Shown here piece by piece: positions 482 through 8,359 of a stretch of DNA of 64,000 nt. How positions within the stretch are numbered: position 1 is the stretch's first letter; the number at the start of each line of letters is the position of its first letter. The stretch is from a virus: positions 1 through 64,000 of IMG/VR virus record IMGVR_UViG_3300009181_000044, one strand, 5' to 3'. The position numbers and the translations under genes are program-made. Below the pieces are notes generated by a model that worked only from the letters and a program-made list of their open reading frames with translations, was not told the DNA's origin and ran no database searches.

Positions 482-625
482 TTAAGACTAGACACTTTGA
501 GTGGATTGCCTACAATCACGGAAATCTAGTGTGCTGGGAGGAGCTCGCGACTTACGGGGATCCAGTAACACACTAGAATTTGCGTAGATTTAGGGTCAAT
601 GCACAATCAAAGTAGACTAGTCTAA
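482..625 (+). ncRNA. long imperfect hairpin (5' leader or small RNA)
   Basis: Nested arms: AGACTAG/CTAGTCT, ACTTTGA/TCAAAGT, CTAGTGTG-CTGG/CCAG-CACACTAG. Confidence 0.5.
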
Positions 626-653
626 AGGTTTTGGGAAAACTACGTTTAAAAAA

Positions 654-1430
654 ATGCTACAATTAAGAAAACTAACTATAACTGAATTACCACTTAACTT
701 AATTGCTACAATGACGGAAACTGAATTGGAGGATTGGGCTGTAAAGAACCAACTCAATCGCATGGGATCGTGGCTCTTGCCCCAACTTGTGGCGGCTTTT
801 GGTTCGTGGCGACTCATCCTAGTTGACGGCAAACCAGATGTTAAACTGACCCTAAAGCACAACTGTGAGTCTAGTTTAGAAGCTCAGGCATACTGGCGGC
901 TAAGCCGAATTCCACGCACGTGCCTATTAACCAAGCAGGTAGCAATTCCAGAGTATGCTGTGTTAACTCCACTAATCCTAGCAGGATTTAAGCGTATGCA
1001 GGCAGTTGGCTATGCGTCATGGCAGGGTTTAGAAAATTTAAGCTATGTCATAGAACCCCGTCTCTTGGAGGCAGTTTGTGTTGATGTGCCTGACTTAGGG
1101 TCAGAGCGACTATTGGAGATTAGACAACAGGGGTTAACAACACGCAGTGGCAAAAGTGCAGGTCAACTAAAGTCAGCAGAAACTACTTGGAGCTTGAATG
1201 GAATATCGGACACTGAGTTGGGACATCTACCCAAATTAACACAATCCATATTAGCTCAAATCTGGCTGGCCCATCCGGTTCACAGAAGTGGGCTTATGAT
1301 TTTAGATCCGGGCAACTGGGATCACATGCCAGAACCACTAATTGCACCCACAATATTTAAACAACCCATTAAAGAATCTGAAGTAATAAACGCAAAAGAA
1401 ACAGCAAAAACACTACTACCGTGGATGTAA
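654..1430 (+). CDS. hypothetical phage protein (258 aa)
   Basis: Long ORF downstream of a promoter, abutting the next gene; no motif recognised. Confidence 0.75.
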   Translation: MLQLRKLTITELPLNLIATMTETELEDWAVKNQLNRMGSWLLPQLVAAFGSWRLILVDGKPDVKLTLKHNCESSLEAQAYWRLSRIPRTCLLTKQVAIPEYAVLTPLILAGFKRMQAVGYASWQGLENLSYVIEPRLLEAVCVDVPDLGSERLLEIRQQGLTTRSGKSAGQLKSAETTWSLNGISDTELGHLPKLTQSILAQIWLAHPVHRSGLMILDPGNWDHMPEPLIAPTIFKQPIKESEVINAKETAKTLLPWM

Positions 1431-1431
1431 G

Positions 1432-1749
1432 ATGAAATACAATAAAGAAATCACTGACCGTATTATAGCTGACTACAAGGCTAAGGTGCCAGTTCGAGAT
1501 ATAGCTAATGCAATTGACGTACCAGAACGCTCAATTATAGCAAAATTAAGCTCTTTAGGAGTTTACGAGAAAAAAACGTATGTTAATAAACGAGGTGAGC
1601 TGCCCGTAAAAAAATCCGAGCACATTGAACGCATAGCACAACTGCTTGAGGTCAATTCAGAGACCCTAGAATCGCTGGAAAAGGTAAATAAGGGAGTACT
1701 TAAGTTAATTGAACTTAAATTGACCAAATCTGACCCTAAACCAGAATAA
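1432..1749 (+). CDS. T5 A2-like DNA-binding protein, paralogue 1
   Basis: RSIIAKLSSLGVYEKK...LESLEKVNK aligns with the other three copies and with recalled T5 A2 (SVRSKL..AKAY..; LASLE). Confidence 0.65.
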   Translation: MKYNKEITDRIIADYKAKVPVRDIANAIDVPERSIIAKLSSLGVYEKKTYVNKRGELPVKKSEHIERIAQLLEVNSETLESLEKVNKGVLKLIELKLTKSDPKPE

Positions 1750-1767
1750 TTGCCCATAATTCGACAC

Positions 1768-1802
1768 AAGCCTACTTAATTTCGGTTAAGTAGGCTTTTT
1801 TG
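1768..1802 (+). terminator. intrinsic terminator
   Basis: AAGCCTACTTAA-TTTCGG-TTAAGTAGGCTT followed by a T run. Confidence 0.85.
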
Positions 1803-2009
1803 CGTCTGCTCTAATCAGGTCAAATCAGGCTATTTTGCGGCACCACTGCAATTGTTACGGTTTAGGGTCAGTAGAACTCAAAGGTTACACTTTAGGGTCA
1901 GAACAGGAACCTATGGGTAAAAATCAAGAATTTGCACTTGACAAGTTGAACACACACTGGTAAAATGGCGCAGGCACGTCGAAAATTTGCGATGTGGTTT
2001 ATTTTACGC

Positions 2010-2048
2010 AAAACAAAGCCCCCTCACCGCGACGTGTAGGGGGCTTTG
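2010..2048 (-). terminator. intrinsic terminator closing the RNA cluster
   Basis: Minus strand CAAAGCCCCCT...AGGGGGCTTTG followed by TTTT. Confidence 0.8.
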
Positions 2049-2066
2049 AACTCGCCAGTTTTTTAG

Positions 2067-2426
2067 TGGTTGTCTAAGTGCAGCTGCCAAGCCGCACACT
2101 GGTTTCCTCAGTGGTTCTCTAACAGGACTTCTGGAAGACGGTCTTCACGGCCTGACCCTAAACTGCACACTGCCTCACTGACGTTACTGTGAGCATACCG
2201 GTGGTTAGGGGAGTAATGCGCTACGCTTCCAACGCTTGCGCCCTTTTTAACGACTTAGGGTCGAGCCGGTTATATTGTTGCTCCCGCTCGGACTAAAGCA
2301 GGGACTAGCCTTGTAACGTGGACAATTACGACTGATTAGAGACCGCTGCAGTTTAGGGTCATTAACGCTACTGGGGGTTCCACCCAGATTACCTGACTCA
2401 TAGGTCAAGCTCTTAAGGTCTTAGAT
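2067..2426 (-). ncRNA. large structured RNA of unknown class, ending in CCA
   Basis: No ORF; 15-bp long-range helix 2347-2361/2153-2167; many hairpins with GNRA loops (GGAA, GCAA, GAAA) on the minus strand; 6-bp closing stem TCTAAG/CTTAGA then CAACCA. Confidence 0.6.
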
Positions 2427-2568
2427 GATAGCTGTATTTATAGAGTTCTTTCTCTTCTAGTTTTGTATTCACACTCATAGTGGAGTCGGGAGGAGTATAG
2501 ACTTTGCTCCGAGCCTAGGGTTACGTACTATTTACAAACTACCACAAGGGATTTATGTTTAGGTTCGG

Positions 2569-2666
2569 TTCCTGACCCTAAGCTGCGACTAGCGGTGTTG
2601 TAGTAACACGCACACTAGCTGCGATTGCTTGGGTTTCGCTAGACTTGCACTAGCTCATCAGAGGAA
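2569..2666 (-). ncRNA. hammerhead ribozyme (type I)
   Basis: TTCCT-CTGATGA-GCTAG(TGCAAGT)CTAGC-GAAA-CCCAAGC...GCTTAGGG-TC|AGGAA: full core, stems I-III paired, GUC cleavage triplet. Confidence 0.88.
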
Positions 2667-2668
2667 TA

Positions 2669-2738
2669 TGGTGGGCGGTGTGTAGCTTCTCACACCATCA
2701 AGTTGTTATCAGATTCGTAAATCTGTCGCATAACACCC
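2669..2738 (-). ncRNA. tRNA-sized CCA-ending non-tRNA RNA
   Basis: GGGTG/CGCCC-A-CCA closing stem; internal hairpins CAGATT-TACG-AATCTG and GGTGTG-N8-CACACC; no TTC T-loop. Confidence 0.6.
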
Positions 2739-2743
2739 AAAAC

Positions 2744-2818
2744 TGGTACTCGGCAGGAGAATCGAACTCCTCTTTCCGCCGTGAAAGGGCAGCGTCCTAA
2801 CCGATAGACGAGCCGAGC
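2744..2818 (-). tRNA. tRNA-Glu (TTC)
   Basis: GCTCGGC acceptor stem, anticodon arm CTGCC-CTTTCAC-GGCGG, T-loop GTTCGATTC, encoded CCA. Confidence 0.95.
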
Positions 2819-2918
2819 AGGATACTAAGGGCTGTGGCTCGGGTAATTTATTCCCCACAATTAAGACGCATAACGGATAAATCCCGTTTCCGCTGTCACC
2901 CTGAATTAATATATAATA

Positions 2919-2947
2919 ATTATAACGTAATCAAGCTCGGTAATCAA
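2919..2947 (-). promoter_or_regulatory. sigma70 promoter driving the RNA cluster
   Basis: TTGATT-N17-TATAAT on the minus strand. Confidence 0.75.
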
Positions 2948-3089
2948 GTAAAAATAAACAGTCGTTGTTATCAGAACTAACTTAGGTGAATTTAAAAAAA
3001 TTAATTAGGTTGACTAAGTGTTCATTAACAAACGGGCGGCCGGGTTTTCACGGTCATTCATTAAGCCCTTCCCGACTGTTTATAAATAA

Positions 3090-3118
3090 ATTATACAGCA
3101 AATAGGGTCGTCAATCAA
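3090..3118 (-). promoter_or_regulatory. second sigma70 promoter upstream of the RNA cluster
   Basis: TTGATT-N17-TATAAT on the minus strand. Confidence 0.7.
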
Positions 3119-3144
3119 GTGAAGATTTTCTGACCCTAAATTGC

Positions 3145-3453
3145 TCAAGGCAGGCGAGCTGCCAAGAGTTCGAGTGCTTCGTGGGTTGCCTTTTCCAGGC
3201 TTTCCAGCACTTCTTCACTAGCGCCCACTTTGTAGGCAATCAGGCTTACCAGCTGAGCCTTGGTCACGCGAGTGCCAGTAGCCTTGCTTTTGGCCTTGTA
3301 CACGCCTTCGCGGCTGAGCTTGGCCACGATGCTGCGGGTAGATTTGCCCAGTTGTAGGGCAAGGATTTCTACAGCCAAGCCTTGGCTGTAACCCTGCAAG
3401 AGTTCAGCCGTTTGTTCGGCGGTGTAGTTGGTTTTGGTAGCTTCAGTCATCAT
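3145..3453 (-). CDS. T5 A2-like protein, paralogue 2
   Basis: NYTAEQT...RSIVAKLSREGVY...LESLEKAT; AAAGGA RBS. Confidence 0.7.
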   Translation of the reverse strand: MMTEATKTNYTAEQTAELLQGYSQGLAVEILALQLGKSTRSIVAKLSREGVYKAKSKATGTRVTKAQLVSLIAYKVGASEEVLESLEKATHEALELLAARLP

Positions 3454-4265: not shown

Positions 4266-4592
4266 TCAAATAGGTTTACTATTTGCCAAAGCGTCAAAAA
4301 TCGCTTTCAGTGCCGATTTATTGGCTTTTGTAAGACTTTCGATGTCATTTTCCGGCAAGCGGAGAATCGCACCGATAGCGTCTGCATGAGCGTCTTTTTT
4401 GACTACAGCTTCGCCCGTTTTGGAAACGTAAGTTTTAGCCACATAGACCTTTTCGCGTGACAATTTCGCCACAACGGAACGCACAGTTTTGCCCAAATTT
4501 TGGGCAATGGTTTCCACCGATACCCCTGAGGTATAATCGGCAATCATCGCAGAGGTTTGCTCTGGAGTGTAATTTACAACTTTCGCAGTCAT
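4266..4592 (-). CDS. T5 A2-like protein, paralogue 3
   Basis: KTVRSVVAKLSREKVYVAKTY; very similar to 9308-9631. Confidence 0.75.
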   Translation of the reverse strand: MTAKVVNYTPEQTSAMIADYTSGVSVETIAQNLGKTVRSVVAKLSREKVYVAKTYVSKTGEAVVKKDAHADAIGAILRLPENDIESLTKANKSALKAIFDALANSKPI

Positions 4593-7882: not shown

Positions 7883-8359
7883 TTAATGTCCTTGTTTGCT
7901 TGGTACATATACGCCACGAATATCAAAACGATCACAAACCGCTTTTAGATAAGTAATATTATCTTCATAAAATGTAAATTCGGCATCTTTGAAATTTAGC
8001 AAATTAAAGAATTTAGCCAAACCTGCAATTTTAAGGGTTGCACCTGATACATTGTCGCCATCTTTGCGAGATATGATATAATCTGGTTCGCCTAGAATCT
8101 CGCTAATAAATTGATTATCAGCATCCCGCAAAACACGGGCAGTAGCAATAATAACAAAACAATTCTCATTTCTGAGGTCTGTTTTGTATTGTTCTGCCAA
8201 TGGTAAAAGTGAATCTTCCAATGCACGATATTCATTTTCACGCCAATAATCAAGGTCGATACGCTCGCCATTGTCGCCAATGATAGTGCGATACCGATGC
8301 AATGAGTCAACAATTGTGCCATCCATGTCATATATTGAAACCTTTGTGATTTTAGCCAT
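7883..8359 (-). CDS. HAD-superfamily phosphatase / nucleotidase
   Basis: DMDGT motif I, ATAR motif II, FYEDN motif IV. Confidence 0.8.
   Translation of the reverse strand: MAKITKVSIYDMDGTIVDSLHRYRTIIGDNGERIDLDYWRENEYRALEDSLLPLAEQYKTDLRNENCFVIIATARVLRDADNQFISEILGEPDYIISRKDGDNVSGATLKIAGLAKFFNLLNFKDAEFTFYEDNITYLKAVCDRFDIRGVYVPSKQGH

Follow-up and report, generated by a model that had tools for sequence, protein, structure and literature searches.

Why would a phage carry a self-cleaving RNA among its non-coding RNAs, and what would the cut be for? The question is raised by positions 2569-2666 (minus strand) of the sequence analysed here, a window of 64,000 nucleotides from the start of an IMG/VR virus record 98.9 kb long. 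A first-pass annotation had described a complete hammerhead ribozyme at this position. Judged from its TerL, a split ligase and a dmp homologue, the uncultured phage is T5-like (Demerecviridae-related). Its TerL was ~50% identical to Vibrio Demerecviridae TerL, a T5-type split NAD-dependent DNA ligase was encoded at about 76.9-78.8 kb of the source record, and a homologue of the T5 pre-early gene dmp (31% identity over 85 aa) was located at 7883-8359 on the minus strand. A 'polynucleotide kinase' PHROG match at 7883-8359 was rejected, the product being a dmp-like HAD phosphatase. Three small paralogous D5/GcrA-like regulators were also observed, at 1432-1749 (plus), 3145-3453 (minus) and 4266-4592 (minus).

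Direct reading of the minus strand from 2666 to 2569 identified every core nucleotide and all three stems of a type I hammerhead ribozyme. Stem I (5 bp) was formed by 2666-2662 and 2573-2569, and was followed by the core strand CUGAUGA (C3 U4 G5 A6 N7 G8 A9) at 2661-2655, by stem II, in which 2654-2650 paired with 2642-2638 (5 bp) below a 7-nt loop, and by the core strand GAAA (G12 A13 A14 plus A15.1) at 2637-2634. Stem III, with an extension of ~50 nt, spanned 2576-2633, and was joined to the closing strand of stem I by U16.1 at 2575 and C17 (H17) at 2574. The hammerhead consensus was present in full (C3-A9, G12-A14, an A15.1-U16.1 pair and a nucleotide other than G at H17), and the closing pairs 1.1-2.1 and 10.1-11.1 were Watson-Crick. 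Stem I is the open helix that holds both ends of the RNA and stems II and III are closed hairpins, which defines the type I arrangement. Stem III opened with 3 bp, continued past a bulged A (2579) with another 4 bp and ended in a long hairpin; in its extension, a proximal helix was followed across an internal loop by two further helices capped by an apical loop.

The scissile bond was predicted from the hammerhead consensus to lie 3′ of C17, between 2574 and 2573. Hammerhead cleavage is established to leave a 2′,3′-cyclic phosphate and a 5′-OH, and the predicted products are an upstream RNA ending in C2574 with a 2′,3′-cyclic phosphate and a downstream RNA starting at A2573 with a 5′-OH. The same complete structure, the same cleavage position, the long extra hairpin in stem III and a distance of 2 nt between the ribozyme and an upstream CCA had been proposed in the first-pass annotation, and all were reproduced here; the CCA occupies 2671-2669, two bases ahead of stem I.

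The minimum-free-energy fold of 2675-2560 was the exact three-way junction (-30.9 kcal/mol), with a folding z-score of only -1.3 and thus an energy unremarkable for its composition. In a 383-nt context, the minimum-free-energy and centroid folds retained stems II and III and lost stem I. A looser parser (minima of 4 bp for stem I, 4 bp for stem II and 3 bp for stem III) returned one site in the window; of 300 dinucleotide-shuffled versions, only one contained a site. Covariance model R1, built from the relatives described below, gave a single match (85.5 bits) in the whole 98.9 kb record. A tertiary contact between stem I and loop II is needed for fast hammerhead cleavage at physiological Mg2+. 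The loop II sequence (UGNAAKU) was kept across the alignment of relatives, and a search for such a contact found no partner of consistent register in the flanks or in element B, the RNA directly upstream. Pairing of loop II with the element B joiner in a pseudoknot was rejected; 5-6 complementary bases were present in some lineages, in differing registers, and none in others.

To identify relatives, the small D5-like regulator gene directly upstream of the operon (3145-3453, minus) was used as an anchor, yielding 80 related loci, 73 of which had at least 800 nt of downstream sequence and were considered evaluable. The hammerhead was present in 47 of these 73 loci, all from uncultured phage contigs; 36 were recognized by the parser and 11 by covariance model R1 alone, including the marginal match in L084 (16.5 bits, E 0.075). 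The ribozyme started ~330-560 nt past the anchor gene in 34 of the 36 parser loci and ~3.3-3.6 kb downstream of it in the other two (L046 and L058), and the 11 matches made by R1 alone lay ~430-1100 nt past it. Several anchor loci without a ribozyme were paralogous gene matches on the same contigs. Among cultured phages relatives were not encountered: R1 had no match in T5 or Vibrio phage vB_ValS_X1, the flanking D5-like ORF had no tblastn match in 50,697 phage records, and the sole match in a distant blastn search of 1800-3200 against phage records was the tRNA.

In the trimmed alignment A3, which contained 32 distinct sequences, the core was invariant except at N7 (U/C) and H17 (C/A), in agreement with the core conservation that the first-pass annotation had named as decisive. 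N7 and H17 are the two positions that the hammerhead consensus leaves free. The A15.1-U16.1 pair was kept in 32 of 32 sequences, paired cells amounted to 92.4% as against 82.7% in column shuffles, and double changes were seen at 9 of 14 pairs, with covariation at 4 of the 5 pairs of stem II. RNAalifold, given no structure, recovered all three helices from A3; from the wide alignment A2, which covered element B and the ribozyme, it had returned only fragments due to misalignment by MAFFT, and A3 was used instead. Stem I, fully paired over 5 bp in the window, was effectively 3-4 bp in many relatives (family range 3-5 bp). In sequence, stem II was by far the least conserved of the three stems. 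The layout of the stem III extension, in three parts, was found in 27 distinct relatives with distal helices that differed in sequence by lineage, a small bulge between the two further helices and an apical loop that was often U/C-rich. Stem II was enlarged by 30-70 nt at L027:4724-4897, L063:4835-4957, L085:4735-4863 and L084:1842-1983. The comparative evidence indicates that the hammerhead is a genuine, evolutionarily conserved self-cutting RNA motif.

This motif was silent in Rfam. Infernal cmscan with the hammerhead models, the check suggested in the first-pass annotation, produced no hammerhead family in the window with Rfam 15, either at the gathering threshold or at E≤10; the only family reported in the window was the tRNA-Glu, with no hammerhead, GOLLD, ROOL or other family in any part of 1950-3150. 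When viral contigs were searched for the same stem II (GCUAG/CUAGC) between both core strands, 24 loci were obtained, and complete type I hammerheads were parsed in 20 of the 23 other than the window's own. Stem I measured 5 bp in 16 of these 20 loci, 4 bp in three and 6 bp in one. Across the 20 unrelated contigs, stems I and III differed freely. No hammerhead was parsed in L009, its near-duplicate L024 or L020, the last of which had a stem I and an irregular stem III. Most of the short hammerheads directly followed UAA, and several lay between a stop codon and the ribosome-binding site of the next gene. All 12 of the short-hammerhead loci that were scanned scored below every Rfam gathering score; the hammerhead of L003, for example, had its best match with RAGATH-1-hammerhead (RF03152), at 28.6 bits (cut-off 56.3), and reached 21.4 bits with HH9 (cut-off 52). 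The Rfam hammerhead models thus under-call the short phage hammerhead class, and since textbook members of the class are also below threshold, the Rfam miss was not counted against the ribozyme. The insert of ~50 nt in stem III aggravates the under-scoring.

The predicted transcript around the ribozyme has the order (5′ to 3′) leader, element A, tRNA-Glu, element B, ribozyme and RNA C. Two candidate promoters of the sigma-70 type, both TTGATT-17-TATAAT on the minus strand and both matching the consensus at 10 of 12 positions, were located by consensus scan at 3090-3118 (P1) and 2919-2947 (P2). P1 was flanked by copies of the motif TAGGGTC, and its block was kept in L010, L054 and L068; P2 lay directly upstream of element A, and an equivalent TATAAT box preceded element A in relatives. 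The transcript leader was kept in distant relatives. Element A (2829-2901, minus), a structured leader in which a GGGU...GCCC helix closes two hairpins linked by a UUAAUUG joiner, was 93-94% identical over 74 nt to the corresponding sequence of L041 and L056, despite only 57-60% identity in the flanking protein of these loci.

The tRNA-Glu (anticodon UUC, encoded CCA) was called by ARAGORN at 2744-2818 on the minus strand and matched the Rfam tRNA model with 50.9 bits (2818-2747). Between it and the ribozyme lies element B (2669-2738, minus; alignments A1 and A2), a two-hairpin RNA directly 5′ of the ribozyme with covarying hairpin stems, an invariant joiner and a 4-bp closing helix. The first-pass annotation had placed the ribozyme in a tRNA and non-coding RNA operon. 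The operon does contain a tRNA, but the upstream RNA that ends in CCA is element B and not a tRNA. Element B was rejected as a tRNA because it had no cloverleaf and both ARAGORN and Rfam called only 2744-2818; its terminal ACCA was replaced by other bases in relatives. Elements A and B were observed to share a layout of GGGU...GCCC closing helix, variable hairpin, UUAAUUG-like joiner and second hairpin. This common plan suggests that the two are tandem copies of a single uncatalogued RNA module, ~75-85 nt long. L030 and L048 had element B only and no element A.

The position of the tRNA varied. A tRNA-Glu(UUC) occurred in the operon of the window and of L017, L051, L052, L087, L054, L072 and L084; the closest relative, L026, had no tRNA at this position, and most relatives had none in the operon. 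The tRNA-Glu precedes element B in the window. In L051, L052, L087 and L072 it followed element B, and the ribozyme started 1-4 nt past its CCA; in L017 it stood immediately before the ribozyme, and element B was not evident in the sequence read.

Downstream of the cut, RNA C (2010-2572, minus) extends to a putative intrinsic terminator at ~2046-2010, which was read by eye and had been missed by the scan. RNA C contained a 15-bp helix (2361-2347 with 2167-2153) and had no Rfam family match. The sole ORF of at least 50 aa on either strand of the region was a 53-aa frame with a TTG start (2247-2408, minus), and the short AUG frame of the window was not kept in relatives, being interrupted by a stop after two codons in L043; a coding function was therefore rejected and RNA C was treated as non-coding. 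A 19-nt block at 2439-2421 (minus) recurred, altered at no more than 3 positions, in 20 related loci. Two of these (L054 and L032) had no ribozyme; in the other 18, about half of the ribozyme loci, the block lay 110-236 nt past the cut. In the window this distance is 134 nt. The block was not found in L026, L028, L034 or L038. In the L068-L077 subfamily an intrinsic terminator followed 5-8 nt past the cut, so that the 3′ product would be the terminator only and self-cleavage would merely strip the terminator hairpin from the upstream RNA; this arrangement of ribozyme and strong terminator was seen at L068:4647-4770 and also in L070-L077. An operon without a ribozyme, consisting of promoters, elements A and B, tRNA-Glu, RNA C core and terminator, was observed at L054:660-2060. 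Facing the operon terminator of the window is a near-consensus plus-strand promoter at 1938-1966 (TTGACA-17-TAAAAT, extended TG), conserved in L010, L017, L054 and L068; transcription from this candidate promoter would produce either an antisense RNA or a plus-strand RNA of very small size.

The neighbours of the ribozyme are thus exchangeable on both sides: element B or a tRNA-Glu fused 1-4 nt past its CCA on the 5′ side, and RNA C or a terminator alone on the 3′ side. It is this constancy of the ribozyme between exchangeable modules that leads us to read it as RNase-independent punctuation. From the comparison of loci, it looks like a separator, or a device that forms the 3′ end of the upstream RNA, rather than one dedicated to the 500-nt RNA downstream. 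The ribozyme most likely divides a single long transcript into individual RNAs, and we consider it likely, with some confidence, that it is a functional type I hammerhead that acts as an RNase-independent separator in an early non-coding transcript.

Catalytic activity, co-transcriptional timing, end chemistry in vivo and biological purpose are what we infer for the ribozyme, in the following sequence. A non-coding transcript of ~0.9-1.1 kb would be made from the two sigma-70-type promoters P1 and P2. The operon stands at the end of a pre-early-like gene block and is probably expressed first after infection. Once RNA polymerase has passed ~2569, the three-way junction could form and the RNA would cut itself after C2574. 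The upstream product would consist of leader, element A, tRNA-Glu, element B and ribozyme, with its 2′,3′-cyclic phosphate end held in a compact fold, and the downstream product would be RNA C with its terminator, carrying a 5′-OH at A2573. With a stem I as short as 3-5 bp, the 3′ product should come away readily, which would render the cut irreversible and avoid religation. Product release through a short stem I is established hammerhead behaviour. The ribozyme would serve as a punctuation mark between the modules of a polycistronic non-coding RNA with no need for an RNase; the cut would define the 3′ end of the upstream RNA and, in this phage, would also free RNA C.

A search for enzymes that might seal the ribozyme ends found no RtcB in the phage genome, and no RNA ligase or RtcB able to act on such ends was found there. 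The T4 Rnl1 model, run in the same search, matched none of the control genomes, and its outcome was given no weight. A weak RNA_ligase match was rejected as an end-sealing enzyme, corresponding instead to the T5-type split NAD-dependent DNA ligase.

The cleavage site coincides with a DNA repeat. A copy of the 9-mer TTAGGGTCA, identified by motif count, covers the 3′ strand of stem III and the cleavage site at 2573-2581 (minus). The window contained 12 copies, where 0.40 would be expected, and 10 of the 12 fell in the interval 590-3139, distributed over both strands. Copies of TTAGGGTCA(G) were located within ORFs and non-coding RNAs, RNA C among them, and next to the -35 box of P1; two copies 30 bp apart preceded a plus-strand promoter. 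The TTAGGGTCA cluster was kept in related contigs (for example L028, L040, L043, L048, L050 and L082), and the overlap of the repeat with the cleavage site was retained in most relatives, which probably accounts for the low variation of stems I and III relative to the free variation of stem II. Antisense copies were present on the same strand within a few hundred nt in most relatives: at 2361-2347 in the window, upstream in L066-L077 and inside stem II in L027, L063, L084 and L085, where the inserts that enlarge the stem open with an antisense copy, partly in an internal loop. The TTAGGGTCAG repeat, doubling as the substrate strand of the ribozyme, marks a region of ~2.5 kb in both orientations.

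Complementarity between the repeat and its antisense copies was confined to the shared motif, the flanks showing no covariation. Where the motif overlapping stem III was mutated (L030, L034 and L037), the stem was compensated on both strands, and L010 and L017 had the ribozyme with no repeat at the site. For these reasons the repeat was taken to be a site at the level of the DNA, accommodated by the RNA, and from its distribution it is probably a protein-binding DNA site. That the TTAGGGTCAG overlap is more than coincidence, with antisense copies gating cleavage or one protein reading the sequence both as DNA and as RNA, we regard as quite doubtful; if true, such dual reading would couple the state of the T5-like early region to processing of the early non-coding RNA.

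The first-pass annotation had proposed that the cut serves the downstream RNA, and a specific role of the ribozyme in making the 5′-OH end of RNA C, for example for its stability or for folding of its 5′ end, is the form in which this proposal was weighed. Its first part stands as a prediction, in that the cut sits at the 3′ end of the ribozyme and RNA C would start at A2573 in this phage. In favour of the specific role are this position of the cut, the presence of the RNA C core block 110-236 nt further on in 18 ribozyme loci, and the near identity of the first 40 nt past the cut in the L040-L061 clade, where stem II varied. RNA C is not, however, a constant partner of the ribozyme. The L068-L077 subfamily has only a terminator past the cut, L026, L028, L034 and L038 have a ribozyme without the core block, and L054 and L032 have the core block without a ribozyme, which together make a role specific to RNA C rather unlikely. 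A role in maturation of the tRNA-Glu appears highly improbable. The recurrence of tRNA-Glu(UUC) in the operon and its position against the ribozyme in L017, L051 and L072 would suit it, but most relatives have no tRNA here, element B intervenes in the window, and the cut lies ~100 nt 3′ of the CCA, so that the ribozyme stays on the tRNA and cannot mature its 3′ end. The first-pass annotation had likewise argued that a type I hammerhead, cutting at its 3′ end, would not trim the tRNA.

The repeat raises two further readings. Antisense copies of TTAGGGTCA in the transcript might pair with the cleavage strand and switch cleavage on or off, a form of regulation to which the same-strand copies nearby in most relatives, the copy inside the enlarged stem II of four variants and the much greater sequence conservation of stems I and III than of stem II would all be favourable. 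We hold it to be very unlikely, given that complementarity stops at the shared motif without covarying flanks, that L030, L034 and L037, mutated in the motif, keep the fold without an antisense partner, and that the motif occurs in both orientations in protein-coding ORFs and at promoters, a pattern consistent with a site at the level of the DNA. Alternatively, inverted copies of a DNA repeat flanking a hairpin might by chance produce a hammerhead-like pattern with no function. The identity of the cleavage site with a repeat copy, the lack of an Rfam match and the z-score of -1.3 are compatible with such a chance pattern, but it is barely credible in the face of a catalytic core that varied across 32 distinct sequences at N7 and H17 alone, of compensation within stem II and, where the repeat is mutated, within stem III as well, and of L010 and L017, which carry the same ribozyme without the repeat.

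Most known bacterial and phage hammerheads lie between protein genes. Processing of long transcripts by phage hammerheads has been known since 2011, when Perreault et al. reported that phage and prophage hammerheads cleave polycistronic RNA fragments of ~2 kb in vitro and that one prophage hammerhead set also cleaves in vivo, in E. coli (PMC3088659). Punctuation of a non-coding transcript would extend the role reported there for hammerheads that flank protein genes. The ribozyme described here shares with the phage and prophage type I hammerheads (PMC3088659; Rfam CL00010: RF00163, RF02275) the 13-nt core and three helices, and with those of PMC3088659 the open stem I, the cut 3′ of H17 and the location in phage transcripts. 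It differs in that those hammerheads flank protein genes whereas the present one lies in a non-coding operon, and in its single genome copy, the conserved stem III extension of ~50 nt and the stem I of 3-5 bp; unlike the CL00010 hammerheads, it scores below every Rfam hammerhead model. RAGATH-1 (RF03152; PMC11300833) resembles it in a 5-bp stem I, a preceding A/U-rich linker and an upstream structured element; in RAGATH-1, however, helix II is replaced by a pseudoknot with the loop of an upstream hairpin, whereas the present stem II is an ordinary covarying hairpin.

Theta ribozymes, which Kienbeck et al. (2024) postulate to process tRNA 3′ trailers (PMC10879173), are small self-cleavers located directly after tRNAs in Caudoviricetes, as is the ribozyme in L017, L051 and L072. 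They have an HDV-like fold and cut at their own 5′ end, whereas the present hammerhead, cleaving at its 3′ end, remains attached to the tRNA; the first-pass annotation had drawn the same distinction, which agrees with PMC10879173. Hammerheads are not mentioned in Kienbeck et al. 2024 (PMC10879173), and among the papers searched none was found that links hammerheads with T5-like phages or Demerecviridae. A further likeness is to tRNA punctuation, in which a structured RNA between modules (RNase P and RNase Z sites) likewise sets where the precursor is cut; L054, with a tRNA-Glu but no ribozyme between the same modules, may be compared with it. Unlike tRNA punctuation, the hammerhead needs no host enzyme, and it leaves a 2′,3′-cyclic phosphate and a 5′-OH.

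The catalytic core of this ribozyme is ordinary; what is unusual is its elaborated stem III and its setting in an uncatalogued early non-coding operon. The family, with at least 47 loci undetected by the Rfam models, could serve as the seed of a new one, and draws attention to several phage RNAs not yet catalogued, namely elements A and B and RNA C. A single hammerhead amid interchangeable modules offers a clean test case for host-independent punctuation or 3′-end formation in phage RNA.
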